Notes: a model not told the origin generated them from the sequence alone. A DNA stretch of 64,000 nucleotides from Amphiscolops sp. MND2022 (GCA_964187785.1 OZ076409.1:5644001-5708000); one strand, 5' to 3'. Shown: positions 1 through 41,374, counted from the first letter of the stretch. Program-made: numbers and translations.

Positions 1-722
1 TTCAGAGCTGGCAATAAAAAGAAGAAGTTCATGTTTAGAAAATTGAGAAGGTATGTTAGTACAAGCGTCTGGAATTCCAAATGAGTTGGTAGTTATTTCT
101 AAAAATACTTCTAAGAATCAAAGAGTATAACCGAATTTGTTCTTCAGTCTGGGTGTTTAAAGTGAAATTTTGAACGAATTGATGTTGGAAGTGAATTTGA
201 AGAATATCCGTAACAAGCCAATGATGAGGATTATTTTCAAGTGTACGAAGGTGTTCATTATTAGGGATTCAAAATAAATGTCTTTTGTGTGATGTGCTTG
301 TATAGCAGAGGGAGTGAAAAGATGATGAGGTAGGAGATTATTCTTCTCCGAGAGGTTTTTGAGAAAAGTTATGAAAACATGAGCGATGGGAATATAATTT
401 TTGGGGTAAATACTTTTACGAAAGGAATTAGTCGGATGAAGAGGAGAGGTGAAAAGTCTAGAGAAAGGACGTTCTTCAGGAGTAGAATTTACAGAATGAG
501 TGTCAATTTTTTAAAGAAATGAGTCGCGATGTTCACGAATGAGAGGGATAGTATAAAATCTTCAGAATAAGTTTCAAAAGAAAGGAGGACAGTGGTGTTA
601 TTGATAATGTTTTTAAGTGATAGTGTTAAAATGCGAGTGTTTTCGCGAGAAAGGCGAGGAGAACGAGAAGAATCAACTGCAAATGGGAGAGAAATCAGAG
701 GAGGAGGAGGTGTATCAGCCAT
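1..722 (-). pseudogene. gag: N-terminal domain of gag, element D (frameshifted)
   Basis: LISLPF...NIINNTTVLLSFETYSED aligns with B LIPLPF...NLIYNSTTPLSFETYPED and A PTPF...NIIFQYTNPLPFETEP. Confidence 0.75.
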
Positions 723-1056
723 CAGGAATGGTGAAGTGGGTGAAAAATGAGAAAAATACGATCGAGGAGAATATCAGGATCAATACGTGGTTCTGGAAGA
801 GGTGGTCGATTATTAAAAATATAGAGTTAATGGCGAAAATCTGAATATTAGGAAGAAAATTTCTGTAGAAGAAAAGAGAGGCAAGAGAAAGAATAGGAGA
901 AATGAGCAAGAGTTGAAAAACTGGAATGCAAGGGTTTGGGTTTGAAAGAAACAGAAAAATATTGAGAAAACGAATAAAGTGAGGAGTTGTTTGGTGGAAG
1001 GTGAAAGTAGTTAGGTTAAAGTGTAAAGTATATTGAAGAGAAGTGGGTAAAATCAA
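715..1056 (-). CDS. Hydrophobic upstream ORF3 of element D, overlapping the gag start
   Basis: NIFLFLSNPNPCIPVFQLLLIS matches B 29198-29434 (NLLFLLPNPCFALFQLILFS). Confidence 0.55.
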   Translation of the reverse strand: MILPTSLQYTLHFNLTTFTFHQTTPHFIRFLNIFLFLSNPNPCIPVFQLLLISPILSLASLFFYRNFLPNIQIFAINSIFLIIDHLFQNHVLILIFSSIVFFSFFTHFTIPDG

Positions 1057-1328
1057 TGAGTAGTAGTGTAATTCGGTAGGAGGTATGAGAAAGAGCGTTG
1101 GAGAGAAATTTTACTTTTGGGAAGAAAAGGGAAATGGGAAAATAGTATAGAAAGGAAGTGTGAGAAAAGGAGAGTAGGTTCGAAGATTTTTAGGTAAAAA
1201 GTGTGGTGACCAAGTTTTCAGCAAATCATAAGAAAAACAAGCATAGCAAAAATAATATGAGACAAAAAGTCTGAATGGTTGTAGCAAGGTTTTCGGTTAG
1301 AAACATTGGCTAGAGAGCGAAGAAAATA

Positions 1329-1442
1329 TCAGGGAATGAAATCAATCATGAATTTGTCGACGGCGAGAAAAGCAATTGCAAGCAGGCCACAAAAATCCAA
1401 TATAATCATTAGAGCACAGATGAGGTCATGGAGATTGTACAT
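1329..1442 (-). CDS. 37-aa predicted single-TM upstream ORF1 of element D
   Basis: MYNLHDLICALMIILDFCGLLAIAFLAVDKFMIDFIP; homologous ORFs sit at the same position in A and B. Confidence 0.6.
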   Translation of the reverse strand: MYNLHDLICALMIILDFCGLLAIAFLAVDKFMIDFIP

Positions 1443-15775: not shown

Positions 15776-16651
15776 TTAATCAACATCATTTAATGAAGTT
15801 ACCAAATTATCTAAATCATTTAAGGGGGTAGGGGATTGGGAGGATGGTGTTATGGGTTCAATACGAATGGGAATTAATGCAGGGGAAAGAGAGAGAGGGG
15901 GTAAAGGAGAATGGATTGTGTCTTTAATTGATACATGTGAACAATGGGGGGTATTGCATTGAAAATAATTTTGGTAATTAGAGCAATTATGCGAGGGGAT
16001 TTGGATACTTAAAGGTGATAAATGTCGAGGTTTCGACTGAGGCGATTTAAATTTACACAATTTTGAAGGGGGGAGTGTATTATTAATCTTATCTAATTCA
16101 AGAGTAGTTTGTTGAATAAGTTCATCATGATGTGTTTCGTAAAGTTTTATTGCATCAGTATATTGTGCAATTTTCTGTTTATAGACAGCTGTGTGGACCA
16201 GTCGACGGACAGGTGGACCAATTCCATCGAGAGGTGGCTGTGGACGTCTGGGGTGCCGTGGTTTATTGCGTAGAAGATCAGTGGTCAGTTGACGGACGGC
16301 AGAATATTGTTGAAGATTGGGAGAAGTGGTGACTGCATTTTTGGGGTGAAGAGAAGAAGTGAGGTCTGTCATCTCTACTGGAGATTGGAGAGAAGAAGAA
16401 ATCACTGGGAGAGTAGTCGAAGCAGTTGTTGTCAAGAGAGGAGAAATGGGTGGCAGGTGAACAGTAGAGGTTGAAGAAACCAGTGATGTCACAGTAGTAG
16501 TTTGTGACGAAATTGAAGACGAAGTTGAAGAAGCATCAATGGATGGAAGAGTGAATGTCGAAGAAGTAGAAGAAGCGGGGAATGGCAGAAAGGAGTTGAG
16601 GAGTTGATTAAGAAGAGGATATGCCAGAATGGAAGGAGGATAAGATGACAT
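15776..16651 (-). CDS. 291-aa Ser/Thr/Pro-rich accessory ORF of element B downstream of env
   Basis: Intact ATG-to-stop frame, preceded by a splice-acceptor-like TTTTTTTTCAG. Confidence 0.6.
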   Translation of the reverse strand: MSSYPPSILAYPLLNQLLNSFLPFPASSTSSTFTLPSIDASSTSSSISSQTTTVTSLVSSTSTVHLPPISPLLTTTASTTLPVISSSLQSPVEMTDLTSSLHPKNAVTTSPNLQQYSAVRQLTTDLLRNKPRHPRRPQPPLDGIGPPVRRLVHTAVYKQKIAQYTDAIKLYETHHDELIQQTTLELDKINNTLPPSKLCKFKSPQSKPRHLSPLSIQIPSHNCSNYQNYFQCNTPHCSHVSIKDTIHSPLPPLSLSPALIPIRIEPITPSSQSPTPLNDLDNLVTSLNDVD

Positions 16652-16793
16652 TACTGAAAAAAAATGATTGTTAAGTTATTTTGTATTTGAATAATTTGGA
16701 GCAATTGAATATAGATAAAGAATGTTGTGATCAAATTTATTGATGTCAGAGCAGAAAAAATATGAGTAGGAAACTAAGTAAGGGTATTATTAT

Positions 16794-19616
16794 TCAGAAG
16801 AGAAATTGAGGTAATAAAAAGTTGGTAAATAATTCAGGAGGAAAACGGCAAGAAAAATAAACTTTGACAGGACTGTCAGGCGGGTCAAAAATATTATTGA
16901 CAGAAGTTAAAGGGATGTCGTTAGTTTTAATTGGCGGTGGAGTAGGGGGATCAATTTTAGTAGATTGCCCAATGGTTATGTATGGGGGAATCGGTAGAAG
17001 AATTATCACAATTGGTGTCATCAGGAGGAGGAGAATTATGTAAATATAGAGGAGAAGATAATGAAGATATTTGAGGGGGTCGAGGAGAAAGATTATTATG
17101 AGAGAGAAGGTGAGAATTATAAATTGGAGGAGGGGGTGAAAAATCTTCGGTGTTGAAGGATTGTGTTTGATCAGTAGGAGTAGAATGAAGAACAGAAGAA
17201 GAAAGGGGTTTGATTGGGGAAGAATTAGGAGAAGATCTTGGCATTGGGGTTTTTTTTTAAAATTAAGGATTTTTATTTTAATGTTAGTATGAAAGTTAGG
17301 CGGACGAGGTTTAGGACTAGAAGAAGAAATGTGAGTTTTCGCTAATGGGGAAAGGGGTGAATCTGAATTGTCAGATTCGGAGTGTGAATTGGATGATTTA
17401 AGCATAGCAGTCATCATGGTTTGGGTAATAGTTCCAAAGAAACCAAATCCCAAAGCAGTTAAAACAGAAATTTGTTTTTTAAGCAATTTTTGAACAGTAA
17501 AGGAACGATAAATACTGAAGAGTGTGTTAAAAGCGAATTTTAAAAAAGAGCGGTAGAGAAATAGATTCCACATTGGGTTAAAATATAGCATGAATAGCCA
17601 AAGAGTATTATGAAAGCATCGGTAAACCAATCAGGAGAGAAAAATGGGGTTAAGTTTAACATGTAGTCGTGAAGACCAATTCGGAGTGATCGGTAAGGAT
17701 TATCTGGAAAAGAACTAGTAGATTGTTGATTCTTAAATTCATAGCTAAAAGCTTTTCCAAGGAGTTGAAGAGTTTTGTCAGAATGTTTAGTAAATAAAAC
17801 TCTATTCCAAAAATGTTTTAGTTCTTTTTGAGAATAAATACCAGCATCTTGAGCAGTGAAGGTATTATGACTAATAGCAGTTTGAATTTGGGTTGGTTCA
17901 CAAAGAAGTAGGGGGTCTTTTTTAATAGGTTGAGGTGTTAAAACATAATATTGATCAGTGTCTGGGTCAAGAGAAATAACAATTTGAGGATTATTTTCAC
18001 AAGGAATTTGATTGGCATATTCAAAAGTTTGACGTGTAATAGGGTCGACATACATAACAGTGTCAAGATAATTGACAGGAATTTTTTGTCATAGCATTGA
18101 TCAGCAATGTATAAAGGTGAAAGGTGATGAGGGCAATCATATAACCAGGCGGTAGAGCCTTCAACATATAAGAAGTTACTACGGTTTTGGGTTAAGAGGA
18201 AACCAGCGAGTTGTGGATTTTTAACAGACATAGCGAGAATTGTTAAAAGTTGGGTTCGTTCTACTTCACATATAGTATGAAGAGTATTAATTTCAGCAAC
18301 AGACATGCTTTTAAAGACATGGTTTATAGAATAGTCAATTTTAGTGTTAATATGAGCTTCGTAATCAATAGTCGCGAAATTATTTGAAGAGTTTAGAGCA
18401 GGGAAAAGAAATTCGTTTTGAGTATGAATTAATTTTCCAGAGATTAACTGGGTAGTAAGTTGATTGTACTGTTCATTTTGTGGACGTTGAAGAGGGTTAG
18501 GTTTACCAGTATGCATATTAAAAACCTTCTTTATATGTTATGAAAAGATCAGGATATTGAGTAAGGTGTAAAGGAGTAGGTTTGTTACAAAACATTTTTT
18601 TTCAGGAAAAATTTCAAAGCGAGAGAGGCGGGTTTGAGGTTTGGTATCATGATAAGGAGTATCTGTTGGAATAGTAGAGGAGTGGTTATTAAAAAAGTGT
18701 TCAGTTTCAAGCCAATAAAAAGTGTTCAGTTTCAGTTATTGAGCTTAGACATTCTACCAATAAAGGAAGTATTAAAAAAGATTAAACAAAGTTCTTCAGG
18801 GAACCAAACGATGGTGAATGGTGTTAATATAGTTGGTTTACAAAAACCATCATCGTGGAGACAAGGTAAAGTATGTCCATGGTAAATTAGTTTATTGTCT
18901 TTATCATCATAAGTAATTTCAATTTCTTTTACGATAAGAGACCAGCTATCTTTTTCGATTATGTAATCATAACGATCCCAACATACAACTTTTTCTTTTA
19001 GAGTTGAGTTTAATACTAATTGTGAATTGGTGATCCAAGCGAAAGCACCATAATGAAATGTATTTAGTTTAGTAATACGAAAAGGGGGTGGTTTTGTTTC
19101 TAAAAGGCGTTGTTTTTGAATATCATCGAAGAATGTAAAGGAATTAGAGTAATTAAAAGCGTCTAGTTGAGGATTGTTAGTTCCGTTCAAATGGCGGATA
19201 GCATGTTTGCATTCTGTAGGGTCAAGAGTACGGGGACGTTCCATAGTGTTTTGATGGTAATCAGTATAATCATGACGACGATATTTGTAATCCGATTGAG
19301 CACAGACAAATTTTACACGTTTTTCATAAGCTTCACAGGTCCAAGCTTTAAGACGTTTAGCTTTAGCGCGAACGAAAACATTGACAATAGCGCGGGTAAT
19401 TTCAAAAGCAGATGGGGCTTGAGCGCATGGTTGGACTCGAGTAAGACTGAACTGTCTTAAATTATGTTGTTTAGAACAATCATAGTGAGAGACTAAGAAG
19501 TTCGAAATATCAGGATCATTGGGATCTACATGATCAGAGGAGGAAGCAAGTTGCGAAAAGACTAAGAACGGGGAAGAAAGAAAATAGAAGATCGAGTGAA
19601 AAAAGAGGAAATGCAT
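16794..19616 (-). pseudogene. env: env of element B (class III / chuvirus-G-like glycoprotein), frameshifted
   Basis: Hydrophobic signal-like segment, then SHYDCSKQHNLRQFSLTRVQPC, conserved Cys spacing, CEVER...NPQLAG, a TM segment and a Pro/Ser-rich tail; ORFs 18732-19616, 17938-18516, 17540-18055, 16794-17630. Confidence 0.85.
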
Positions 19617-19789
19617 TTTAAAATTGGGCAGTATTTTTTAAAAAGGTAAGGGTATTAAGAAATGTAATAGAGCCGTGTAAAAGACGAAACGGAGGATGGT
19701 CGCTTACAAAGTGACTAAGATTTGTAGCAATAAAAGGATGAGAAGAGATTTAAAATAAACTGTTGTATGTGAGGGAATAGGATGAGGAC

Positions 19790-20938
19790 TTAAGTTATGA
19801 AATTTAACGGTAATTTAATTTTAAGTTCTAAATTTGCGTCTTCTAGGCGAAGAAATTCTTTACGGCGACGTACATTTGAAAGGTGGGGATTTGAATTAAG
19901 TTTATGGGTGGCAAGGTAAAGAAAGCGAGGATCTTGGCGGGGGCTACTGACAAGAGTGTTATTCACGATTAAAGGGTAATCAACACGATTAGGTGTTGGA
20001 GGAGTAGAGTATTGATCAGTAGTGAGGTCAATGTTAAGTAAGTGACTATCAGAAAGGATAGTGGAATTATGAGAGGTAGGACGAGAGAAAAGGTGACCAG
20101 CGTGATTATAAGAAGAAATAGAAGAACGTTGAGAAGAGGTAGTGTCAATTCCCGAAGTGGGAGAATTTTCTGCGTTAGAGAGAGAGTCTGAAGAAAGAGA
20201 TTGAGAGTGATGGCGTAGAAGAGAAGAATTAGTACTTGCGAGAGAAGGAGAAGGGCGACGATTATTGCGAAGATTATATCGATGACGAAGTGGAGGGTTA
20301 AGAGTAGATTCAGAAGTAGTGTCAAGAAGGTTGTCTAAAGAAGAAGTTGTGTACTTAGAGGCGGAACTTGAAGGAGGAAGACGAGGAAAAAGAAGAGAGC
20401 AAGTAGTTGAATCGACTTCACTGAAGTCAGATTTCTTTCGGAGAGAATCAATAGATTCAAGGGCAGGGATTTTGAGAGGTTTAGGTGGGGGAAGTGAAGG
20501 TTGAGAGAAGATATGAGAACAAGGTGGAGGTATTGAAAGAGAATTATCTAATTGAGAGCGTCTGCGAAAAGATTTTATGGAGGTAGGTATAAGTTTTGGT
20601 GTAGGAAGGGTTGGATTATTAATATTTCTAAGGAGAGTAGGGTTTATATCACTGGGATCAGGGATATGAAAAGAAAAAGGAAGTGGAGAATGGGTAGGGG
20701 TTATATTAAAAGGGGATTCAGTATCGGAAAGTGGGAGAGTTAAAGAATTTTGAGTTTGTTGAGGAATAGAAGCTTTCAGAGGAGTGTGAGTTGGGGTATT
20801 AACAGGGGTGGTATCTAAAGAGGGGGTGATTGGTATAGGGTTCAAGGGAGGTTGGTGAGGAACTGGTAAAAAACTTTGTGATGAAGGTATAGTATCAGTT
20901 GAAACAGAAGAAGAGGGTTGAGAAGAACAATCAGACAA
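19790..20938 (-). CDS. Ser/Pro-rich ORF between integrase and env (element B)
   Basis: 382-aa frame homologous to A 30988-31557 (HRYNLR, PPTP..DYPL.V, P..DPRF). Confidence 0.65.
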   Translation of the reverse strand: MSDCSSQPSSSVSTDTIPSSQSFLPVPHQPPLNPIPITPSLDTTPVNTPTHTPLKASIPQQTQNSLTLPLSDTESPFNITPTHSPLPFSFHIPDPSDINPTLLRNINNPTLPTPKLIPTSIKSFRRRSQLDNSLSIPPPCSHIFSQPSLPPPKPLKIPALESIDSLRKKSDFSEVDSTTCSLLFPRLPPSSSASKYTTSSLDNLLDTTSESTLNPPLRHRYNLRNNRRPSPSLASTNSSLLRHHSQSLSSDSLSNAENSPTSGIDTTSSQRSSISSYNHAGHLFSRPTSHNSTILSDSHLLNIDLTTDQYSTPPTPNRVDYPLIVNNTLVSSPRQDPRFLYLATHKLNSNPHLSNVRRRKEFLRLEDANLELKIKLPLNFIT

Positions 20939-21269
20939 AAATACAGTAAGATCCAGGATGGAAACAAAAGGGAGATATATAACAATTTTCTATTAAGTAT
21001 GAAAAGATAAATAAAGATTGATATTAGGAAGGTGTAAAACTTGTAGATGGAAAGTAGTGAATAGAGATTTGAAAAGAATACGAATGCTGTTTCGATGAAA
21101 TGAAGTTTTGACGATAGCAACAGTTCAGTCAGAGTTCACTAAGGTAAAGTGAAGAAGTGTGTATAAGATACAGATACTAATTAGATTGTCGTGTGTCAGA
21201 CTTCAATAAGAGTCTAGACTAAGGACAATATGCAAAGGGAGGAAAACCAAATAAAAAATGAATATTTAA

Positions 21270-24200
21270 TTAAGGGGGGAAATCGATGTTTGGTTTGGAT
21301 GAATTATAATGTCTAGGAGGGAGTGAACGTAAATTATAAGGGGAATGAGGAGCTCGTTTATAAGTGGAGTCATTTTGAAGGGTAAGTGAGGGGGAGGAGG
21401 AAATATCAGGAGAATCAGCAATACGAGGGAAGAACTGAGGAAAGGAATCATTTGAAGAGTTCGAATAATAAATGGGGTTTGGAAGCATTTCAAAGTCAGA
21501 GTCGTGAGAATCAATAGTTTTATCAAGATTATCTTGAGAAGAAGAATGTGAAGGGTTGCGGTGAACAGGAGTAGTTGTTGGAATATTATCTAATTTGTCT
21601 TCTAAGGAAGAATAATGTGGAAAATTTTGATATCTAGGAACAGGAGTAGGAGAAGTATTGGGTTGTCTAATTTTTGAGGATGTAGGGGTTTGAGAATGAT
21701 TTGGATTGTGCGGTAAATCTAATGAGGAAAATTGAGAAAATGTATCTTGGTAAGGTTCAGTATCAGGGTTATTAATAAGGGAAGGGGTAGAATGATAGTG
21801 TTTAATATATGGAAAAATAATGGGTTCTTTGGGATAATATGGTAGAATATGATTTCGATGGGTTTGGAATGTAGAGCCATCTTGCGATAACAGTTCATAC
21901 ATTACTTCAGATAGATGGTTAAGTATTTTATATGGGCCAATTCGGAGAGGTTTGAGCTTTTTTGAAAAATTGACAGGTTTAAAATTCGTATGAATCACAA
22001 AAGTATTCAGAGGTAATTGTTTTAAAGGAGTTGTTTCAAATGTATAACTTTGAGAATTTAGTTTATGATTTAAATGGCGGTGGACAGCTGAATATATTTC
22101 TAACATTGCAGTTTCAGCTGCCAAAAGCCATGGGAAGATAGGTTTATCAAGAAGTGAATGGAAGAAGGGATTAGGGTCTTGAGTGCTATAATGTGAATGA
22201 GGGGGAAGAGACTCACAATAAGTTGCTATACAATTTTTTGAAGCATCACGAGGTAGGTTAGGAGAAAAGGTAAGAGGTATACGAAGATGGGTATGGAAAA
22301 CGATTTGATAAGGGGAAAGTTCAAGTTGAGAAAGAGGTGTTGTATTATGGGCATATGCGTACATTTGAGTTTGAAATGACCAGTTAGTAGGTGGATTTTG
22401 TAAAAATATCCGGAGATGAGTTCCAAGATTTCGGTTTTGAACTTCCACTAAACCGTTTGTCCACGGGGAGTAAGGAGTTCGAGGTGAGTGATTAATATGG
22501 AAAAGAGAACATAGATGAGCCATATCATGATTGATATATTCAGTACCTCGGTCTGCAACGAGGCATTGAGAGGGAACAAACTTGGTGATCCAGTGATGGA
22601 GTAGGGTTCGAATTGCATATTTAGAAGTGATATTAGGAGCAGGGTTAGTAACAACAAAGTGACTAAATGCGTCAATAATTACAAAAATATATGAGTTGTT
22701 TTGAGATGATGGAGAAATAGGGCCTTTAGTGTCCATAGAGATCCGGTAATTGAAATGAGTAGCACTTTCGTAAAAGGGAAGAGGGGGAGAAATATTTTGG
22801 GGTTTAATAGGAAAATGTTTTATAGTTTGACATTCAATGCAGTCATGGATGGATGAAAATAGAGAACCATAAAGGTAAATGAGGGATAAAATAAAATTGA
22901 TTAAATGTCTTAATAGAGAGTTTTTCACCTGAATGACCACGAGATTGTGTTTTACTAAATGCAGCATAAAAGAGTTTAAATGGTAAACATATACGTGTTT
23001 GGTTAATAGAAGGTTGAGTTTTAATAAAGATTTCTTCAAAAATTCGAAAGTTAGGTGTATAATATTGAATAAGATGAGTGTTTGGATCAATATATAAATG
23101 TTGGAATTGTTTATAATATGTATATAAAAAGGAGTTTGCTTTAATAATTGGGGTCAAGGAATAAGAAAGTCTTTGTTTTTGTTTTAACCATTTATATACT
23201 GTAGAAAGGACAGTATCATCTTTTTGAGCTTGAAGTAAAATGGGTACTGTTAAAAAGAAATCAGAAGAGAGAAAGAAATTATCAAATGTTTTACAGTGAG
23301 CAAAGAAGGAAGGGTCAAAGAATGGTAAAGATTGGGTATGTGTAGGCTTTGGAGAAGTTGGGGTAATAGCATTACTGTCAATAGTGTTATTACTAATAGA
23401 AGGGGAGTTGGTAAGGTTGGTTAGGATATCTTGAGACAAGTTGATATCGTTGAAGTAATGGTGTTGTATTTCAGTAAAAAGGGTGTGAAGTTCATGAGGT
23501 GGTTGCGAATACTCTTGGGGGATTCGTTTAAGAACGGGGTCGTCTGTATCGTATAAATCAGTTTCATTTAAAAGAGGATTTTCTTGGAGTAAAGTAACTT
23601 TGTTTTTGACAGGTTTTTTGTATTTATTTAAGAATGAGGAAACAGATTGGAAGGAAAAGGAATCAAGAGGAGTATATTTAACGACAATGCCTTTATCTTG
23701 GATACGAAGTGTGAATTGATCATCACCATAATCAGCTAAAATTAAATGTGAATCAATTTTATGTGTAGGAAGTACGTCTTCATGTTTTATTGGATAGTGA
23801 ATGGGTTTTAAAATAATATCGTTTTTGAGTTGAAGAAAATCAATATGTGGAGGGAGAGTTTTGTGTTGGAGTTGGCATGTTTTATTATTAATAGTTGAAA
23901 AATCTATACTGAGCATATCAGCAACAGTAAGGTTTGTACCAGCTGTATGAATTATTTGTAGGTTTGAAAATTTGGTTAATAGCATTTGACCTTTACATTG
24001 TCGAGGAGTTAGGTTACCTTTACGAGTGAAAAGAAAAAAAATAGGATTGTGATGCGTAAAAATGGTTATCGGGAATTTAGAACCAACTATAATGAATTCG
24101 TATTGAGGAAGGGCAAAAGTAATAGCACAAAGTTCTCTATCATAGGTAGAAAGTTTTTGTTCTTGAGTTGTTAAAATACGAGAATTATAAGAAATGATTT

Positions 24201-26484
24201 GCATTTTGCTTTTTAAGTTAGGTTGAAATAAAACTGCACCTAGGCCAATTAAAGAGGCATCGACAGTTATATAAAATGGATGGGTAGTACTTGGAATGGC
24301 AAGTTCTGCATCTCTAGAAAGAGAAAGTTTGATTTGATTGAAAAGTTTATCGAGAGCAGGAGTCCATTCAAACAAAATATCATCTTGGAGAAGAGTGTAA
24401 AATGGTTTCAAGGAAATGTGTAGTTTGTTGATGAATTTGGAATAAAAATTCATTGATCCTATGAAGCGCAATAATTCAGTTTTAGAAATGGGTGTCTTTA
24501 ATTGGTGGATGGCGTCAAGTTTAGAGGAGATGGGTTTGATTGTATTATTACCAATTTCATGTCCAAGAAATTTGACAGTGAGGAGGATATAGAAAGATTT
24601 TTCAGGAGCAATTTTAAGATTATTTGTTTGACAGATTTGGTAAAGTTGTTCAATTAAATTTAACATGTGAGGTTTTGTATGTGCAAGAAGGAGAATGTCA
24701 TCTATATAAACTAATGCAAAACCTTGGTCAATAAGTTTTTGAAAAAATGAATACATTTGTTTGGTAGAAAAATTGGGTAGGCCTTTAAGACCATAAAATC
24801 CATGAATAAAAGCGTAATGTTTGTCACCAGAAGAGAAACTATTTAAGGTTATAGTTTCTTCATCTAATGGAGCATGAGCGTAAGCATAAATGAGATCAAT
24901 GGCGGCTTTGAATTTTTTGTTAGCACGGGCAAGTTTGGGAGCTAAAGGTTCAATAGGCCATGATTCGGAAGATTGATCGGTATTTGAATTAAGGTGTCGT
25001 GCGTCCAAAACGACTTTAATAGTATCTCCTTTAGGGATAATAATGAAAGAGCGTTTAAAAATGTGGTGCCATATATGGATTTGTCAGAATGAGTAGAACC
25101 AATTTGGCGGATAATATTGTGTTTTTCTAAGTCATCAAGGAGTGTTTTTAATTTTTCTCTATAGTGAATAGGAACTTTTGTCGGTCGTTGGGTTTGAAGT
25201 TTGTCATTAGGTTTAAGACGGATTCTAAAAGGAGTAGCTATTTGGCCAACATCGTTTTTGTGTGTTGTGTTGCATAACAGGTACGATATTTAACAAGAAT
25301 GGAGCAGAGTTGTAAGTATTCTTCATCAGTGACATCAGAATACTGGAAGTTAAATTTATTGAGGAATTGTTGAGTGTCTGGTGAATATGGTAATGGTGGG
25401 AGGATCGGGTTAAAATTTGAGATGGTTGCAAATTGTTTATTTCAAATTGAGGGTTGCGAAGAGAAGAACGACGACGGAGAGGTTTTGGTTCTGAAAGATC
25501 AGGATAATAAGAATGAAATACAGTGTGTATTAAGGAGTTTACATCATTAACTTTATATTGAGTTGGTTGAATATTAGTGGCTGGAACCTCAAAGTATCCA
25601 ATATATCCAGGAGCAAGAATGGCAGAATGGTGGGTAATATTTTGAATAATAACAGAACAACTAGAGGGTTCGGTATTAACATTTTGGTAGACTTGGAGAG
25701 AATTAAAAGTTGAGTTGAAGCGTGTATTAAAAAATGGATGAGGTGTGGAAGGGAATATGAGTTCGTTATCAGAAGTTTTAAACGTTAAAGGAAGTGTTGG
25801 TTGAATTGGGAAATGGATAAATTGAGAAGCGTTGAGTTTAAAATAGAGCTTATTTTTAACATTGATAGTGTATATGTAAGAAAAATATGGATAATCTTTT
25901 TCCTTATGAGCTGTAAAAGGGAGGGTGTTAATGCGAGATTCATGTGGAGTATTGAATGTCAGTGACAAACTTTCAATATTAAGAGTTTTAACATATTTTT
26001 CAAAAAAGGGAGTTCCAAGAATATTGTATTTAATATTGACTGCAGCAAAAGGAATAATAAGGGTACGAGTATTTCCGTGAAGGGAGGTATGAAGTGTAAG
26101 TATTAGATTATGAAGAATAGGTACTTCGGACTTATTAGCAACGGTTTAAGTTTTATATTCATTTTGATGTGGGGAATGTTTTGAGCATTTTAAAAAGTGA
26201 TCGGCTAAAATGGTAAAAGTGGGTAAAGTTAAAACACAAATGGATGCTCCACTATCAAGTAGGAACAAGAGTTCTAATTTAGAAGGGATAGAGGTATCCT
26301 CACTAGGTTTGAAAATGTATAAATTAATAAACCAAGTGGAAGGGGTAATAGCGTTGGCATGTTCAGTATAAGTTGAAGAAAGCTGAGATAACGGAGGGTT
26401 AGGGTGACACATGTTTATTTCAAAATTAGTTTCTGTATTGGAGTGGTTTTGAAGAGGTGGTGTAGATGGATGTGTAAGATTCAT
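21270..26484 (-). pseudogene. pol: pol of element B: protease, RT, RNase H, integrase (frameshifted)
   Basis: LLDSGAS (26146-26484); YIDD and VDAS...RELCAI...ADMLS (22843-25008); ISMD, IIDAFS, DRGTEY, TNGLVE and IGPY (21270-23090). Confidence 0.95.
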
Positions 26485-29198
26485 AGATGGTTTGTATTGG
26501 GATTGAGAATAATTGTTTGAATTTGAATGAGATCTACTACGATAACGATCATTGCGTGGTTTAGAAGGGGGACGATACGGAGAATTGTATCTATTAAAAG
26601 AAGAAAAAGTTGAGGAACGTTCACGGGAACCAGGGTAATATTTGGATGGACTACGAGAAGAATTAGAGTTATAATATGTTCGTGAAGAAGTGTATGATTT
26701 ATAAGGATTTTGATTGTAATGTCTATCATATCGAGATCTATCACGATGGTGGTAAGATGAATATGTGCGGGAGGGAGTTTTAATATTATTTCTAGGACGT
26801 GAATGTGAACCTGAATAAGAACGAGATTGATATCGAGTTTCGCGAGAAGATCTGCGGGAAGGATTACTGTGACTTCGACTACGGTAACGAGGATAATGAG
26901 ATTTATTGGAAGGGCTTTTAAAATGTTGATAAAAGGTGGAGTCGGAGATCTAGATTGTGGTTTTCATTCTTTGAGCATATTAAGTCGGTGAAAGCAAGTT
27001 GAAACACAGTGGTTATTTTTATGGCAAAAGAAACAATATTTTTTGAATTGGGGTTTCGATTCATTGTTAGGGTCCATTGCTTGAACTTGTAGAGATTCGG
27101 AAGGAGGATCTTGAATAGTTGCATTTTGTTGAAAATTATTAGAGAGGGTGTTAATTTCAAGGGAAAGTTCTTGAGTTTTAATTTGTTCAAGAGTAATATC
27201 TTCGGAATCGACCATATTGACTAGAGAGTGAAAAGGATTTGATGGTTCTAAGGAACTGGAAATATGTTTGACTTGGCGTTTATTGGCAAAGTCGTTTAAT
27301 TTTTTAGGAAGACCACGGGTGAAAATTTCATTACATTTGAGGTTAATAGTAGAAGGGTATTCATTATACCAACCTTGTTTAACAAGGTTTCGACTTTGAG
27401 CGCGAAGTGACGGCCATTTTCATTATCCTTTTTACCATGGGAAAGAGCTTCAATTTGAGCATGATATGCGTGTTTTTGAGAGTAGAATTGTTTTTTTAAA
27501 GATTTGGAGAAAAGATGACCAATCATCTTTATAAACTTGTGGAAGACGATCATACCAATTGGAAGCAGTTCCTGTGAGGGAACAATAAAGGAGAGACATT
27601 CGACGAGAATGCCAAGTTAGATATGAGTGAATATCTAAAGGTTGAGGTCCAAGTTGAAATGTTACTCGTGCACTTAGATGTGCTAGAAATTTTTCAGGAG
27701 GATACGTATGGTCGTAAGAGTTTAATAGGATCTGACAAAGCAGCAAAAGGGACAGAAGGAGTGACTGGAAAAGAGAGCGATGAATATGTAGAAGAAGGGT
27801 TGAAAGCTAATGTTGAAGTAGGAGGAATAGAATTAGGGGGGTTTGGAGGGGGTTGGAGAGAATTAGTGGGGAAGTTTTGAAAAGTAGGATAGAGAGAAAG
27901 ATAAGGGTTGTACGAGGTGGATTGGGTGGTAGAAGAAATAGTTTGAGAGATAGTAGGAATTGGTGGTATAGAAGAAGAAGCAAATGGGTTTTGATTAGGG
28001 ATAAAAGGATCATGGGTGGAAGAAGGTGGGGGATTTTGAGTGATTGACTGTGAGGGGAGAGTATTATTTAAAGAAAGAGGAATAGGGGGTAATACGGGTA
28101 TGTGAAGAGCGGACGGTTGAACAGTATTATAAGGAACAGCAGGTGGAGTATTAGAAGGTGTAGTATAATGGTTCGGAAAGTTAGAAGTAGGAAGGCGTTC
28201 AGTAGTTGTGGTGATTTGAGAAGTAGAAGTGGAAGTGTGTTGATTTAAAGATGGGGTAGGGTTTAGTATAGCATTTGAAGATGAGGAGAGAGTGTGAATA
28301 GAAACATTGGAAGTTGTATCAGTTGAAGGTGGTAGAAAGTGTTGTTGCATATAAAGACGAATAGGAGGAGGAAGATAAAGATTTTTATCAAGACTGTTGG
28401 AGTCATAGGCAAGGTATTTAAAATGAAAAGAAGGGAAATCGAGAAGATTATAAAACTGAGGGTGTTCATTATCAGGAGTATCCAGAAAAGGTAAAAGCTC
28501 ATTTTGAGTAAACTGTTGAGGAAAATTTATGCAAGCATCTTGGAATTTTGAGAGCCAAATGAGTTAGTAATTATGTCGAAAAAATTTTCGAAGGAAAAGA
28601 GAGTATATCTGAATTTGTTCTTTTGTTTTGGTAGTGAGGGTAAGATTCTGAAAGAATTGATATTGAAAATGGTGAATTTGAAGAATATCGGTAGTAGGCA
28701 ATGGTGGGGGTTATTTTCAATAGTACGAAATTGTTCAATTTTAGGAAGGTCAAAAAGAGATTCCTTTTGGAGAAGGTCGTGTAAGAAAGAAGGGTTAAAA
28801 ATATGTTTAGGTAAAAGGTTATTTTTTTCTTGTAGATGATTGAGGAAGGTTGTAAAGACATTAGCAATTGAGATATAAATATTGTTAGGATAGATGTTTT
28901 TTCGAAAAGTATCAGAGCGATTTGTGAAAGAAGTAAAGGGAATAGAAAGTGGAGGTTCTTCAGAATTTTCAAAAAGGGAATGGGTGTCAATATAGTATAG
29001 ATAAGAGTCATGATGTTCACGAATAAGAGGGATTGTATGAATATCTTCCGGGTAGGTTTCAAAAGAAAGAGGAGTGGTGGAGTTATAAATAAGATTGTTA
29101 AGAAATTGAGTAAGAGTTTGTGAAATATCACGGGTGACACGTTGAGAGGTATTGAAAACAAAGGGAAGGGGAATAAGGGGTTGTATGGGTTCGGTCAT
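26485..29198 (-). pseudogene. gag: gag of element B (N-terminal domain, P/S/T linker, capsid-like region, CCHC knuckle, RS-rich tail)
   Basis: SLTGTASNWY capsid-like motif; CFFCHKNNHCVSTC; RS/RY-rich stretch ~26500-26900. Confidence 0.85.
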
Positions 29199-29434
29199 TA
29201 TGAGTGTCTATGGGGATTGAAATATAGCCAAATCCAATCCATAACAACTTCAGGATGGACGGATGGTTCAGTAGGGAGTGGAAAGAAATAGCGATGAACT
29301 TTTTGGCGAATGTAGATATAGAATGAGAAGAGAGACGTGTGAAAATATATAGGTACACTGATAAGAAAGACGGAAAAGAGGATGAGTTGAAAAAGGGCAA
29401 AGCAAGGATTGGGGAGAAGAAAGAGGAGGTTCAT
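29198..29434 (-). CDS. Hydrophobic upstream ORF3 of element B; its stop overlaps the gag ATG (TAATG)
   Basis: Homologous to D 715-1056. Confidence 0.55.
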   Translation of the reverse strand: MNLLFLLPNPCFALFQLILFSVFLISVPIYFHTSLFSFYIYIRQKVHRYFFPLPTEPSVHPEVVMDWIWLYFNPHRHS

Positions 29435-29678
29435 ACAAAAGGAACGAGAAAAAGAAAGGAGAGTGAGAAAGGTATAAGTGATGATAGTAGATTAGGTATG
29501 AATATAAAAGGGAGGAGGAAAAGGGGGAAACTTAGAAAGAAAGGAATTTAGCAGAAGAGAGATTCGACAATTTTTTCAATGAGCAGCATTAAGAATACTA
29601 GCATTGCAAAAATGTATGAAACAAAAAGAATAATGGTGGCAAGATTTTCGGTAAGAAACATAAATGAAAAAGCAGGGA

Positions 29679-29816
29679 TTATGCTCTGTATTGTTCAATA
29701 GCATGAGGAAGGAAAGGGATAATAAATTTATCAACAAGAAGAAGAACAATGGCACAGCGACCAAAAAAATAGAGGAAGATTAAGCAAATACAAACGGAGT
29801 CATTAAGGGAAAGCAT
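29679..29816 (-). CDS. 45-aa predicted single-TM upstream ORF1 of element B
   Basis: MLSLNDSVCICLIFLYFFGRCAIVLLLVDKFIIPFLPHAIEQYRA, translated by hand; aligns without gaps to D uORF1. Confidence 0.6.
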   Translation of the reverse strand: MLSLNDSVCICLIFLYFFGRCAIVLLLVDKFIIPFLPHAIEQYRA

Positions 29817-29964
29817 GGAAAATGTGGGAGGAGGTAGGAATGGGAAAGAATTTTAAATAGAAAGTTTAAGATAGAAAAATGGAAGGTAAAAAAGGGAATG
29901 AAAAAAAAGGTGTAGAAAGGAATGGGGAAATTACGTTAAAGGGATTAGAACGGGAGAAGAAAGG

Positions 29965-30168
29965 GTACCAGCGCGTAGCTGAATCACAAAAGGTGATTAG
30001 TACAGAAGAGAATGTTGTACCAGCGCGTAGCTGAATCACAAAAGGTGATTTGTACAGAAGAGATAAGGTGTACCGACTACTGGGTCGAACCACTATATGT
30101 GATTAGTACGTAAGAAGATTGAAGTTGTGTACCGACAATGAGTCGAATCACTTTGTGTGTTTAGTACA
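29965..30168 (-). repeat. Four structured leader repeats (element B)
   Basis: gtaccagcgcgtagctgaatcacaaaaggtgattagtac and variants. Confidence 0.85.
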
Positions 30169-30236
30169 GAAAGTTTGTTTGGTATTGAAAGAGAAAATGA
30201 GTACAAAAAATGTTGATAAAAAGGAAAGAAAAGAAG

Positions 30237-30247
30237 TGGTCGCACCA
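30237..30247 (-). promoter_or_regulatory. Primer-binding site, element B
   Basis: TGGTGCGACCA, 2 nt from the LTR; complementary to a tRNA 3' end ...GCACCA (possibly Gly, unverified). Confidence 0.75.
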
Positions 30248-30249
30248 GT

Positions 30250-30566
30250 TAAAGTACTTGTTTTGTTATGGTTATTGGATATTAAGTTAGAAGTAGGTCT
30301 TAGTTGTAGGTTACAAGTAGTACTTTAAGAGACGCTAACAGAGCTGCAGTTATTAGGTCTTTTAAAATGAAGACAACTATTCGATGAAGAATCAATTTAA
30401 GTTGTGTGGTACAAATCAGAATATATGGTATTGAAAATAAAGTAGTTACATCAGACAATCAGACAATTCATTTTACATCTAGAATATTATTGAGGTGCAC
30501 TGTTCTGAAGTCTAGACATATAGAGGGTGGGGGATAATTATGAACTATGAGATATTTGGTATATCA
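30250..30566 (-). repeat. 5' LTR of element B
   Basis: Near-identical to 14156-14469. Confidence 0.95.
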
Positions 30567-31980
30567 GTAAGTTAAATTGTCTCAAATTGTGTTGTTTTGC
30601 ACAGTCATAATGAGAAACCATGAGATTTGTAATATTCGGATCATCCGATGGAAGATAGTTTTCTGTGTCAGAGGGTGTTATGGGTATTGGAAAGGTGAAG
30701 TTAAATAAGTGTGAATAGAGTATCAGAATTGTTTTATATGAGGTTGTAAGGAGTTCAAAAAGAGGTAGTATATTTAAGACCTGAGTACGGGTTACAAAAT
30801 ATGATTTTGCCATATGTGATAGAAGGTATATTGAGGTCTCGTTCAAAATCAATGTGTACTACTTCAAAAGGAGCAGGAGAAGTTTTATGTTCTATCTTTG
30901 AGACGTGAAATATTGGATGTGGATTTAAACCTTGCAATTTGACTTTGACTTCAACTTTGAGTTCTAGATTCGGTGTCTGAAGGCGTTTTAGTTCTGTTTC
31001 CTTCTTTTGTGAGATAAGAGATCGTTGTTTGTAATGAAGCGTTCTGCAAGGATAGGAAATCTAGGATCGTGCTGTGGGTCGTAGATGGTTATACCATCGA
31101 CTCTAAGTGGATAGTCAGCAAATTTTGGAGTTGGAGGTCTAGATTGATCTGCAGTATAATATTCAGGTATTCTAATATGTGCGGGAACAGGAGTAGGTAT
31201 TATAACTTTTGAGAAAAGATTTCCAAAAAGGAATGCAGTCTGAGCGTCTGAGGAAAGTAGAGAAGCGGTTTCAAAACCAGATGTAAAAAATGGAGAAGGT
31301 ATAAAGTCAGAAGAAGTTGTTTCAGAAGACAACGGTTGTGCGTGTTGTCGTAGAAGTCCTAAAGTAGAATTGCTAGAAAGAGCAGATAGGTTAAGTGTAG
31401 AAGTGTCTGTACTAAGTCTGCGTGAATGAAGATCTCGAAGATTATATCTATGGTGTGGTACAAAAAGTGAGCCTGTTGTATCTTGTGATGGAGTGTATTC
31501 TGATGTATTGTCTAAGAGCTTTGATAGTGATGTAGAAGGTTTTCGAAGAGGTTTCAATGGTGGATAAAGTTTTGAGGAAGTAGTACTAAGTTCTGATGGT
31601 ATTTTCAGTGAAGGTAATTTTGTATATTCAGTATCGGGGATTTGTACAAAATTAAGTTGAGGTTGTAATCTAACAGTTTTGATAGCTGTAGGATGTTTGT
31701 AGTTAACGTATTGTTCAACACTTTCAGGGTTTGGTATGTGTACTATAGGAGTGTTAATAGGGGTTTGTTGAGTAGGAGTGTTTACATGTAATTCAGTTAT
31801 AGGTGGTCTATGAAGGAGTGATGAAAATGTTGTTTCAGAAACGTATGATCTTGGTCTTTTAGAAGGAGTAGTAGGAGTTACATTACTAGAGTTTGTAGTG
31901 TTGGATACTGAAGATTCAGGAGTAGAAGGAATACTTGGAGTTGATGGAGATATATCAGAGGAAGAATCCAGGATTCTTGA
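30567..31980 (-). pseudogene. env: Ser/Pro-rich ORF and N-terminus of env, element A
   Basis: 30988-31557 is homologous to B 19790-20938; 30538-30852 carries MVSHYDCAKQHNLRQFNLL. Confidence 0.8.
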
Positions 31981-40100: not shown

Positions 40101-40222
40101 GTTTCGAATGGAAGTGGATTTGTGTACTGAAAGATGATGTTATTTAGAAAAGGTGTTACATCTTGTATGAGAGATCGATTTTGTCTTTTTTCTGTAGTTA
40201 ATGTAAATGGAGTGGGAAGCAT
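37039..40222 (-). pseudogene. gag: gag of element A (frameshifted)
   Basis: 39221-40222 N-terminal domain; SLTGTALSWY; CSYCHRTNHSISAC knuckle; RS-rich tail. Confidence 0.87.
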
Positions 40223-40237
40223 TATATGGTATAACGT

Positions 40238-40471
40238 TTAGTTAGTATAATAAGATTGCCATAAAGGATAGATGTATTGGAAAAGAAGATATTTTGTATT
40301 GAATTGTGAGTTATATGGTAAGATTTGTTCTATGAATACAACTTGTAAGAAAATTGTAAGTGCTGTACTTATGAAAAGAAGGAATGGGTTTTTTATATAT
40401 TGGATTAGTGTATAAAAAGTGTGGTAAATACTAAGCAGTCCAAAAAGAGGTAGTACTATACTTGTTAACAT
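40238..40471 (-). CDS. 77-aa hydrophobic upstream ORF of element A
   Basis: Two hydrophobic stretches; ends 15 nt before the gag ATG, the same position as uORF3 of B and D. Confidence 0.5.
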   Translation of the reverse strand: MLTSIVLPLFGLLSIYHTFYTLIQYIKNPFLLFISTALTIFLQVVFIEQILPYNSQFNTKYLLFQYIYPLWQSYYTN

Positions 40472-40490
40472 AGAAGAAAAAGGTTGTACT

Positions 40491-40613
40491 TTAAAATTTT
40501 GGTATGAATGAAATTAGGAAATTGTCAAGAAAAAGTGCAAGACCGGCAACGATAGCAACAAAGAACCAAAAGCAGACAATGAGCTTAACTACAGTGTCTA
40601 CTGAAGGCGGCAT
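40491..40613 (-). CDS. 40-aa predicted single-TM upstream ORF1 of element A
   Basis: MPPSVDTVVKLIVCFWFFVAIVAGLALFLDNFLISFIPKF; ends in the shared D[KN]FxIxF[IL]P motif. Confidence 0.6.
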   Translation of the reverse strand: MPPSVDTVVKLIVCFWFFVAIVAGLALFLDNFLISFIPKF

Positions 40614-41372: not shown

Positions 41373-41374
41373 AT

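Follow-up and report, generated by a model that had tools for sequence, protein, structure and literature searches.

A cassette of small putative membrane-protein genes upstream of gag in env-carrying Ty3/Gypsy elements of Amphiscolops sp.

By analogy of organization, the closest known case to the small ORFs which we describe here is the pair sORF1/sORF2, found upstream of gag in Drosophila elements of the MDG1 group; the members compared are 412, mdg1, Stalker, blood and Tabor (PMC11952523). It was reported in 2025 that fly retrotransposons which lack env can move from the soma to the oocyte by means of small membrane proteins whose genes precede gag (PMC11952523). The same report describes a pair of small accessory ORFs before gag, of which one encodes a transmembrane protein, in the MDG1 group and in 105 arthropod Metaviridae consensus sequences (PMC11952523). 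The sORF2/FAST-like proteins have 63–107 aa (Voichek et al. 2025, PMC11952523). A myristoylation motif, MGxxxS/T, was the search filter for sORF2, and according to the report it is missing in two of six fly sORF2 (PMC11952523). A survey of 249 drosophilids states that sORF2 and ENV are never found together (PMC13486581).

We have studied a window of 64,000 nucleotides from Amphiscolops sp. MND2022 (GCA_964187785.1 OZ076409.1:5644001-5708000). A sequence-only reading of this DNA had proposed a conserved cassette of small membrane-type ORFs upstream of gag in three diverged elements (A, B and D), and had taken it as something which is not a standard feature of Gypsy elements. The latter needs qualifying, since paired small ORFs upstream of gag are already described (PMC11952523); for the three-ORF cassette, a literature search of limited extent gave no earlier description. 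The presence in three elements stands for the first ORF only: uORF1 is found in A, B and D, while uORF2 and uORF3 are found in B and D and the second ORF of A is a different one. All these small ORFs lie on the minus strand of the window, between the primer-binding site and gag, and the features given below are on that strand. They were compared with 93 further copies, all from the one 1.07-Gb genome which holds the window. One of the families that bear the cassette has thousands of copies in this genome.

Element B has its 5' LTR at 30250..30568. The direct repeats 14156-14469 and 30250-30566 have 96–99% identity, and the partner 3' LTR begins at 14154. Reading of the flanks shows a target duplication of 4 bp, AAGT, at 14150-14153 and 30569-30572. 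The core of the primer-binding site (TGGTGCGACCA, 30237..30247) comes directly after the LTR; the same motif follows the LTR of D and served as an anchor in 30 copies. From the position of this site it follows that everything downstream would sit on the full-length RNA. In the ORF list gag starts with a 223-codon ORF in the window copy (28527..29198), after which we find CCHC, protease, RT, RNase H and integrase, in that order. The domain matches are PF00078, PF17917/17919, PF00665 and PF24664, the last one in a piece of the env-like ORFs at 17540-19637 (35.5 bits, cut-off 27). By its LTRs, primer-binding site, domain order and env-like ORF, B is a Ty3/Gypsy (Metaviridae) LTR element with env. 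It shares with the errantivirus-like Ty3/Gypsy elements that have a Chuviridae-like or gB-type env the LTRs, the primer-binding site, the 4-bp duplication and the order RT-RNase H-integrase followed by a PF24664 env-like ORF (PMC13524379). The text available from that survey has no mention of 'upstream of gag' or 'small ORF' (PMC13524379). Element A has an env-like gene of the same type as B; the two have 39% identity in gag and 54% in RT. Element C (41636-59812), of balanced composition, was inspected for similar uORFs and none was seen.

The leader which precedes uORF1 in B (29817..30236) has no ATG at all in the window copy. In 30 copies the mean number of ATG between the primer-binding site and uORF1 is 0.37, against 4.0 expected, and 20 of the 30 have none. 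Within it TRF finds tandem repeats of about 52–58 nt (29938..30167), each made of two short hairpins; they fold with z = -3.1 with respect to shuffles. The leader has no match in Rfam, and the leader of A has no nucleotide similarity with those of B and D. The strand has only 6–12% G, which makes stop codons scarce; codons for F, L, I, S and P are common. By our estimate from composition, chance alone would leave about 24% of 37-codon frames and 5% of 78-codon frames open. The AUG contexts of the cassette are weak, but equally weak contexts arise by chance in such a pyrimidine-rich strand. Several short ORFs ahead of gag are also present in the long structured leader of Rous sarcoma virus, where what is conserved is their position and length and not the peptide sequence. 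Caulimovirus leaders with ribosome shunting also combine several short ORFs with a long structured leader, and in them position and length are again conserved and not the peptide, whereas the peptides found here are hydrophobic and themselves under purifying selection (PMC5902531).

Such a composition raises the question whether the frames are simply by-products of a T/C-rich, G-poor strand, in a region conserved as RNA for packaging, dimerisation or internal ribosome entry. The structured repeats of the adjoining leader agree with this explanation, as does the chance opening of about a quarter of 37-codon frames. The length of the ORFs is indeed unremarkable on this strand; their conservation is far beyond chance, as we describe in the following paragraphs.

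The first ORF, uORF1, has 45 aa in B (29816-29679), with a short N-terminus, a hydrophobic core and the motif D-K-F-I-I-P-F-L-P. It has 37 aa in D (1329..1442) and 40 aa in A (40491..40613); across clades its length is 37–48 aa. The three copies end as it had been noted, in D[KN]FxIxF[IL]P, and those of B and D align without gaps. It is full length in 25 of 30 B copies. In A the same stop is found in 16 of 21 copies, 19 of the 21 have no frameshift, and among the scored matches in the genome all 150 are at least 93% identical and stop-free. The peptides of A and B are related with z = 5.9, those of A and D with z = 4.1 (5000 shuffles). The C-terminal motif, which ends in Pro, is the most conserved stretch, and it is followed by 0, 1, 2, 8 or 11 residues before the stop, depending on the clade.

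In B the second ORF, uORF2 (29548..29661), begins 17 nt past the stop of uORF1; across clades this spacer has 9–19 nt. It would give a single-pass hydrophobic peptide of 37 aa. In D (1226..1306) only a 26-aa ORF is left, with the rest (IFAMLVFLM) running on in another frame; the frameshift which had been noticed is a feature of the D copy. The opening MFLTENLAT is common to B and D with the synonymous differences reported in the sequence-only reading. Intact forms are present in 22 of 30 B copies, and the 37-codon form is kept at 11 of 30 D-clade loci. An alignment of 16 copies from four clades has 37 columns without gaps, with 68–95% identity over all 37 positions. Between uORF2 and uORF3 there is a pyrimidine-rich non-coding spacer (29435..29547; T 50%, C 33%, G 2.7%). 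It has no codon periodicity (21, 20 and 17 variants by position), and between B and its sister family B2 it shows a p-distance of 0.42 and 7 gap columns.

The third ORF, uORF3, has 78 aa in B (29198..29434). Its stop codon TAA (29200-29198) shares the last A with the gag ATG, so that the junction reads TAATG as had been claimed. D reads TGATG (724-720), with the stop TGA at 724-722 and the gag ATG at 722-720; here only a remnant of uORF3 is left (722..960), its start codon changed to ATT and its frame broken. Across copies uORF3 has 75–80 aa, and intact 79-aa forms exist at two D-clade loci, L035 and L042. Of the 30 B copies just 6 keep the full frame: the length of a run of five to seven T at about 29285-29291 is variable, and groups of copies have frameshifted forms in common. 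These two observations suggest that the C-terminal half may be dispensable in family B. The overlap T(A/G)ATG is present in 40 of the 42 copies with a located gag start (26/27 in B, 14/15 in the D clade); 60 copies were examined, and the 18 of them without a located gag start were left out. The cassette and gag recur in further diverged copies (L082-L094), and the overlap is also found in L082, L083, L087 and L091.

Element A has instead a second small ORF of 77 aa with two hydrophobic stretches (40238..40471), which starts 19 nt past uORF1 and ends 15 nt short of the gag ATG at 40222. Variants common to at least two copies fall 1, 4 and 21 times at the three codon positions (p = 1.5e-6). It was considered as a homologue of uORF2 or uORF3 and rejected, with a negative shuffling test and an hhalign probability of 0.2%.

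The sequence-only reading had called these ORFs selected micro-proteins. Tests at codon level in many family copies found the excess of synonymous change and the conservation of frame that should accompany selection. Each of the three ORFs evolves like a protein-coding gene constrained by purifying selection, a conclusion strongly supported by frame-specific pN/pS values of 0.09–0.29, by shared variants being in excess at the third codon position and by the lack of indels. The ratios are NG86 counts pooled pairwise from copies which are not phylogenetically independent. Within B all 30 copies were used, in frame and in the two shifted frames. The values are 0.45, 0.75 and 1.41 for uORF1, and 0.12, 1.46 and 2.17 for uORF2, while uORF3 has 0.44 and 0.21 in frame. 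In the same copies gag has 0.45, and the non-coding leader controls 0.51–1.06. Between B and B2 we compared 5 x 5 copies whose ORFs are all intact: uORF1 has pN 0.105 and pS 0.48 (ratio 0.22), uORF2 0.061 and 0.64 (0.09), uORF3 0.16 and 0.54 (0.29). The non-coding flanks differ by 0.42–0.48 with 7–13 gap columns, the ORFs having only 0–0.6 gap columns. Synonymous divergence, 0.48–0.64, is about that of the flanking leader; at non-synonymous sites the divergence is smaller by a factor of 3 to 10. The gag genes of B and B2 differ by an indel, and gag was left out of these divergence figures.

Comparison of B with the D clade, in copies with intact ORFs, gives ratios of 0.45, 0.27 and 0.60 for uORF1, uORF2 and uORF3. 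Permutation of the positions of the substitutions in such copies shows a deficit of non-synonymous changes (median p 0.04, 0.003 and 0.01 respectively). Comparisons within D are near neutral (0.61–0.74). The codon patterns show selection in the lineages that kept transposing. uORF1 offers the weakest case: its B–D ratio is near the lowest non-coding control (0.51), and p < 0.05 is reached in only 57% of pairs. Variants common to at least two copies are distributed over the codon positions as 10, 2, 14 in uORF1, 4, 4, 16 in uORF2, 13, 7, 23 and 4, 3, 11 in uORF3, and 37, 47, 67 in gag. Singletons are flat, and so are the leader, spacer and LTR controls, in which none of 173 windows has p < 0.05. 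Intactness by itself shows no selection, since the 25/30 and 22/30 intact copies of uORF1 and uORF2 are close to what is expected from the decay rate of gag, which is open over 223 codons in 16 of 27 copies.

Conservation as RNA alone becomes very improbable in front of these data. The nucleotide diversity of uORF1 and uORF2 is as low as that of gag, as it would also be in a conserved RNA. However no non-coding control has the three-base periodicity which the shared variants of the ORFs show, and the synonymous sites diverge like neutral flanks while the others are held back. The uORF1 peptide is conserved between A and B without nucleotide similarity. The lack of an Rfam match, of a consensus structure at the gag junction and of a hydropathy explained by composition points in the same direction. 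The codon-level tests largely refute an RNA-only conservation; an overlapping RNA function may exist beside coding.

The membrane-type character which had been attributed to the ORFs is supported by hydropathy and by structure prediction. The cassette has KD19 values of 2.25–3.02 (uORF1 2.63, uORF2 3.02, uORF3 2.42). A value of 2.5 is reached by none of 98 leader windows and by 2.8–3.6% of the element-internal windows, so that the cores exceed what a T-rich, G-poor composition of the same kind gives, and hydrophobicity is not a matter of T-richness only. For uORF3 AlphaFold2 predicts a long helix at residues 10–50, with a block pLDDT of 80–86. Some 10 residues come before the hydrophobic core in each of the 9 aligned copies. 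The hydrophobic helix is followed by a basic juxtamembrane stretch and then by a linker rich in Pro, with another helix at the C-terminus. Net charge goes from 0 to +1 before the core to +3 to +5 just after it. Residues 31–50 contain 5–6 K/R/H, with R43 and K45 invariant, and a Tyr lies near the helix end; Y39 is the sole Tyr that occupies a single column in the alignment of 9 copies. None of the 9 copies has Gly at position 2 nor the motif MGxxxS/T, and no uORF1 or uORF2 peptide begins with MG.

These features allow a comparison with the MDG1 elements, as they are described in the published report. In both cases sense small ORFs with low dN/dS lie between the 5' LTR and gag on an unspliced full-length RNA, which is predicted in our case (PMC11952523). 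In predicted architecture uORF3 (75–80 aa) resembles sORF2 (about 70 aa): it would be single-pass, with a hydrophobic helix and a helical tail, and the basic stretch with Tyr after the helix may correspond to that of sORF2 (PMC11952523). Its length is inside the 63–107 aa range of the sORF2/FAST-like proteins, and uORF1 and uORF2 (37–48 aa) are below it (PMC11952523). However there are three ORFs here, none of them like the helix-turn-helix sORF1 of about 110 aa, and the last one overlaps the start of gag, unlike in MDG1 (PMC11952523). The membrane segment of uORF3 is preceded by some 10 residues instead of an ectodomain of about 30 with an amphipathic motif, and the motif used as a filter for sORF2 is absent (PMC11952523). 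sORF2 has one TM segment with the N-terminus outside and the C-terminus inside; in uORF3 one hydrophobic core is found, inside the predicted helix (PMC11952523). Finally, the cassette elements carry an env-like gene, which MDG1 elements lack (PMC11952523).

We consider it fairly probable that the small ORFs are accessory genes for membrane micro-proteins in a clade of env-carrying Ty3/Gypsy endogenous retroviruses, with an sORF2-like role suggested by analogy. Each of uORF1, uORF2 and uORF3 would give one single-pass membrane micro-protein, and family A would have uORF1 and its different 77-aa ORF. By analogy alone, they may be membrane-associated accessory factors in the cycle of the virus-like particle. 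uORF3 would be the architectural counterpart of the sORF2/FAST-like proteins, which MDG1-group elements use for cell-to-cell transfer, with uORF1 and uORF2 as small partners. The same evidence for coding and membrane character would be equally expected if the genes are real and have another role, for example as viroporins that form ion channels, in modulating the class III env glycoprotein, or as antagonists of a host membrane protein. We think this is unlikely, and nothing favours any particular one of these roles: the three peptides have no family in Pfam, and uORF3 has no fold or motif match in the ESM Atlas (its best score, 0.80, is also attained by shuffled proteins in one case out of three). 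It gains from the length of uORF1 and uORF2, far shorter than the sORF2/FAST-like proteins (PMC11952523). With an env-like gene of their own, the elements also have no obvious need of a second device for entry, and sORF2 and ENV do not co-occur in the drosophilids of the published survey (PMC13486581).

The arrangement of the ORFs suggests how the proposed micro-proteins would be translated. Because the leader before uORF1 is depleted of AUG, the AUG of uORF1 would be the first one met by scanning ribosomes. Weak AUG contexts and the short spacers of 9–19 nt between uORF1 and uORF2 would permit leaky scanning or reinitiation along the cassette, and the conserved UAAUG/UGAUG overlap would link the initiation of gag with the termination of uORF3. 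Known termination-reinitiation systems are influenza B M1/BM2, calicivirus VP1/VP2, hypovirus CHV1 ORF A/B and the SART1 non-LTR retrotransposon (PMC10275272; PMC2699510). As in these, the stop of an upstream ORF of more than 30 codons overlaps the next start (UAAUG), here kept across diverged families (PMC10275272). The known cases depend on an upstream element that binds 18S rRNA (TURBS) or on RNA structure close by, neither of which was detected here (PMC10275272). A crude scan of the 90 nt upstream of the junction against a genomic 18S copy (L081), with helix 26 unmapped, gave duplexes equal to those of shuffles in 7 of 7 copies, and RNAalifold predicted no pairs in 10 diverged junctions (-60 to +95). 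A further difference is that the downstream ORF is here the main gag gene, instead of a minor product (PMC10275272).

The serial arrangement ahead of gag, the short spacers, the stop-start overlap and the AUG-free run before uORF1, which shows selection on scanning, would also suit regulatory uORFs acting in cis, whose nascent chains stall or release ribosomes and set the supply of gag with no role as free membrane proteins. Selection at the amino acid level is equally expected in that case, and in uORF1 conservation is highest in the C-terminal motif with its final Pro. However the constraint extends along whole peptides and not just over the last residues (in uORF2 over all 37 positions), and the stop of uORF1 is not fixed, as it comes 0 to 11 residues past the motif. 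There is no reason why three stalling peptides should all have cores whose hydrophobicity ranks in the highest few percent for this composition. Moreover A has exchanged uORF2 and uORF3 for an unrelated ORF which is again hydrophobic and constrained. Regulation in cis seems quite unlikely to us.

It is possible, at somewhat less than even chances, that the leader is a kind of operon, with two or three genes for micro-membrane proteins translated serially from the genomic RNA and the last one coupled to gag through UAAUG. They would form a new class of accessory genes alongside a class III env, smaller than the sORF2/FAST-like proteins and unrelated to them in sequence features.

The alignment of uORF1 found four short proteins in protein databases, apparently gene calls on copies of this same genome; one of them (P0001) is the same reading as a 47-aa ORF at locus L040. 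The alignment of uORF3, searched with HMMER against 1.84 billion representatives, has 12 matches at E <= 0.001. Among those fetched, four read like loci of the same genome and two more were located there with 99–100% identity; the remaining fetched ones are untraced, and no relative from another species is found among the protein matches that were checked. The gag alignment has no relative in metagenome contigs and viral contigs. With uORF1 or gag of family A as queries in the genome, the matches listed are filled by A copies.

A cassette different from that of flies, with up to three still smaller putative membrane-protein genes, is kept by selection in these env-carrying elements of another animal. 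The new class of accessory genes beside an env, if real, would go against the mutual exclusion of ENV and sORF2 seen in flies. If the peptides are made, the repertoire of accessory genes in Metaviridae would widen, and the AUG-cleared leader, the short spacers and the UAAUG junction would offer a natural system for polycistronic translation in eukaryotes. It would also mean that routine cut-offs of ORF length hide conserved genes in the leaders of retroelements.

The genome that holds the window is eukaryotic, with a size of 1.07 Gb. The first 59.8 kb or so of the window is a nest of LTR retroelements with all of its coding on the minus strand. It contains 26 of the 28 ORFs of at least 150 aa in the window, all of them minus, and in 1–59812 at least four elements are nested in one orientation. 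Element B (14154–30568, minus) has LTRs which are 96–99% identical and is flanked by four matching bases, AAGT (14150–14153 and 30569–30572). After the LTR come the primer-binding site (PBS), gag with a CCHC knuckle, protease, RT, RNase H, integrase and env-like ORFs, which match the Monjiviricetes fusion-glycoprotein family PF24664. With these LTRs, PBS, gag-pol domains and PF24664-type ORFs, B is an animal Ty3/Gypsy provirus that carries env. The env-like frame of element A, whose 5' leader is found in 40222–41375 (minus), resumes beyond the 3' LTR of B in 13724–14230; together with the AAGT flanks this makes B a nested insertion in the env of A. Element D (1 to about 2000, minus) has only its 5' end inside the window. 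The neighbouring element C has 99% identical LTRs (41636–41935 and 59513–59812) and a balanced base composition. In A, B and D the coding strand is rich in T and C and has just 6–12% G; their long pol frames stay open in spite of this depletion (1–41635). Family A is highly abundant: a first look gave 7774 gag candidates and 2671 uORF1 candidates genome-wide.

Each of the small ORFs which the sequence-only reading had placed ahead of gag is found at its coordinates on the minus strand. In B they are uORF1 (29816–29679, 45 aa), uORF2 (29661–29548, 37 aa) and uORF3 (29434–29198, 78 aa); the last A of the uORF3 stop TAA is the first base of the gag ATG. Element D retains an intact uORF1; its uORF2 has the frameshift that had been claimed, and its uORF3 has lost the ATG, but the gag junction is nonetheless TGATG. 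The cassette had been attributed to all three elements. This holds for uORF1 and not for uORF2 and uORF3, since A carries a different second ORF of 77 aa (40471–40238, minus), which starts 19 nt after uORF1 and stops 15 nt ahead of gag. A database protein of 152 aa (P0013) corresponds to uORF2, spacer and uORF3 in one open frame, so that one copy or more must have lost the stop of uORF2 and have both ORFs in phase.

On a G-poor strand stop codons are rare and ORF length proves nothing: strand composition leads to an estimate that about one in four frames of 37 codons is open by chance. Since T-rich codons also favour F, L and I, a codon-level test on many copies is needed. We compared unaltered copies from the same genome: 30 of family B (84–90% identical), 30 loci of the D clade (67–79% identical to D and far more diverse than B), 20 pieces of family A and 13 additional, diverged copies that were identified via uORF3. 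Four B-family copies (L012, L013, L016 and L017) lie in one contig with a spacing of about 20 kb and have in common an internal uORF2 stop and a T5 run. This suggests a tandem segmental duplication and not four separate insertions, so that these copies would not be independent. In family B uORF1 is intact in 25 of 30 copies and uORF2 in 22, while gag is open over 223 codons in 16 of 27. The two uORF values are close to what this gag decay predicts, so that intactness alone is no evidence of selection.

Codon-level conservation, in contrast, is clear in family B. Nucleotide diversity falls from 0.15–0.26 in the flanking leader to 0.05–0.13 in uORF1/2, equal to the gag level. The pN/pS ratios (Nei-Gojobori, pooled over pairs which are not independent) in the own frame and the two shifted frames of the 30 copies are 0.45, 0.75 and 1.41 for uORF1 and 0.12, 1.46 and 2.17 for uORF2; the two parts of uORF3 give 0.44, 0.66 and 1.41, and 0.21, 0.97 and 2.14. 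For comparison, gag has an in-frame ratio of 0.45, and two stretches of non-coding leader range from 0.51 to 1.06. Variants found in a single copy correspond to decay after insertion and are even over codon positions. Those present in at least two copies represent change in lineages which were still transposing; they concentrate at position 3 and are scarce at position 2, with counts at positions 1, 2 and 3 of 10, 2, 14 (uORF1), 4, 4, 16 (uORF2), 13, 7, 23 and 4, 3, 11 (the two parts of uORF3) and 37, 47, 67 (gag). This excess is absent from the leader, spacer and LTR controls (p < 0.05 in 0 of 173 windows). The codon-level check proposed by the earlier reading comes out in its favour: replacement changes are held down, in a frame-specific way, and silent changes are in excess.

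The same pattern is found between families. In B2, a sister family of B (L087, L088, L089, L091, L094), the three uORFs and the gag start are all open. Comparing five ORF-intact copies of each family, pN and pS are 0.105 and 0.48 for uORF1 (ratio 0.22), 0.061 and 0.64 for uORF2 (0.09) and 0.16 and 0.54 for uORF3 (0.29). Non-coding divergence is 0.48 in the 120 nt before uORF1 and 0.42 in the uORF2–uORF3 spacer, with 13 and 7 gap columns respectively, against 0–0.6 in the ORFs. As pS is similar to non-coding divergence and pN is low, silent sites have drifted like non-coding DNA and replacement sites have not. A comparison of B with the D clade gives 0.45 for uORF1, 0.27 for uORF2 and 0.60 for uORF3. 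When substitution positions are permuted, the replacements seen are fewer than those permuted (median p 0.04, 0.003 and 0.01), with p < 0.05 in 57%, 99% and 88% of the pairs; uORF1 is the weakest case of the three. Comparisons of D copies with each other are near neutral (0.61–0.74), as expected for old dead copies. Sixteen uORF2 copies, which represent four clades, align over 37 columns without gaps; uORF3 of B and D has a single one-residue gap and 35–42% identity.

In family A all 150 scored genome matches of uORF1 are stop-free and at least 93% identical. Its shared variants are distributed as 8, 2, 9 over codon positions, those of the 77-aa ORF as 1, 4, 21 (p = 1.5e-6). The leaders of A and B have no nucleotide similarity outside gag; their RT is 54% and their gag 39% identical. 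The uORF1 peptides are nevertheless alike when compared with 5000 composition-preserving shuffles (z = 5.9 for A–B, 4.1 for A–D). The 77-aa ORF has no similarity to uORF2 or uORF3.

Of the 30 B copies, just 6 have a full-length uORF3. The cause is a T run at about 29285–29291 (minus), which has 5, 6 or 7 T in different groups of copies; its length decides the frame of the C-terminal half (L002–L030). The variation could be real polymorphism, slippage or a homopolymer assembly error. The low count means either that family B can do without the C-terminal half or that the run is mis-assembled. The 7-T form reads U UUU UUU in frame, which has the shape of a slippery site. B2 (5/5) and clade E, a further diverged family (2/2), have no T run and keep the uORF3 frame.

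Over its best 19 residues, the Kyte-Doolittle mean is 2.63 for uORF1, 3.02 for uORF2 and 2.42 for uORF3 of B, 2.87 and 2.25 for the small ORFs of A and 2.68 for D. Hydrophobicity due only to T-rich composition had been named as the alternative. Stop-free windows of equal length on the same strand seldom reach such values: 0 of 98 reach 2.5 in the non-coding leader, while in the element interior, over all three frames, 2.8–3.6% reach 2.5 and 0.4–0.6% reach 3.0. Composition alone is therefore insufficient for the hydrophobic cores. An AlphaFold2 model of uORF3 from the alignment has a helix at residues 10–50 (block pLDDT 80–86), which a proline-rich linker joins to a short helix at the C-terminus. 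The net charge is 0 to +1 before the core and +3 to +5 after it, an imbalance which points to a C-terminus on the cytosolic side.

The PBS is necessarily on genomic RNA, upstream of the cassette, so that the uORFs are on full-length RNA unless spliced out. Between PBS and uORF1 there are on average 0.37 ATG, against 4.0 predicted from composition, and none in 20 of 30 copies; the uORF1 AUG is thus maintained as the first one that the leader offers. Position -3 of the uORF AUGs is a pyrimidine, a weak context which could be due to chance on a pyrimidine-rich strand; gag of A and B has A there. The uORF1–uORF2 spacer is 9–19 nt in every clade. Among the copies with a located gag start (it was not located in 18 of 60), 26 of 27 in family B and 14 of 15 in the D clade have a uORF3 stop that overlaps the gag ATG. 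Clade E and B2 copies preserve the overlap as well, and where the uORF3 frame of B is shifted, the TAATG still closes an ORF of 14 codons. From this geometry we infer a possible coupled termination-reinitiation at gag. The proposal depends on geometry because 18S complementarity upstream of the gag junction is not above shuffled controls and no conserved RNA structure was found around the uORF3/gag junction. UAAUG coupling is described in influenza B, caliciviruses, a hypovirus and the SART1 retrotransposon (PMC10275272). Between PBS and uORF1 each leader also has 2–4 tandem units of 47–58 nt on the minus strand (B 29938–30167, D 1555–1673, A 41041–41180). The units of B and D each fold into two short hairpins, AAUCAC/GUGAUU and either CAGC/GCUG or CGAC/GUCG; the second stem varies through paired changes. 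Those of A have another sequence in an equivalent place. The repeat region of B folds better than shuffles (z = -3.1). The repeats may serve in packaging or protein binding.

Every database match that we traced proved to be this genome's own, and scans of two sequence collections (metagenome and viral contigs) with a gag alignment found no relatives. Gypsy elements with Chuviridae-like or gB-type env are reported from several arthropod orders, in an account which does not mention small ORFs before gag (PMC13524379). Among described systems, the two small ORFs ahead of gag in Drosophila MDG1-group elements come closest: sORF1, of about 110 aa, is nuclear, and sORF2, of about 70 aa, is a transmembrane FAST-like protein which goes with capsids into the oocyte and has look-alikes in 105 arthropod Metaviridae consensus sequences (PMC11952523). 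uORF3 resembles sORF2, as described there, in position, size range and overall architecture. It lacks two of the features by which that group is defined, the ectodomain of about 30 residues and the MGxxxS/T motif, and uORF1 and uORF2 have no counterpart in that system (PMC11952523). Furthermore, the uORF3 elements carry env, whereas sORF2 and ENV are stated to co-occur in none of 249 drosophilids (PMC13486581). For these reasons we do not file uORF3 as a member of sORF2: the cassette is akin to the sORF1/sORF2 arrangement, yet it stands outside the sORF2 family and is set apart by the features described.
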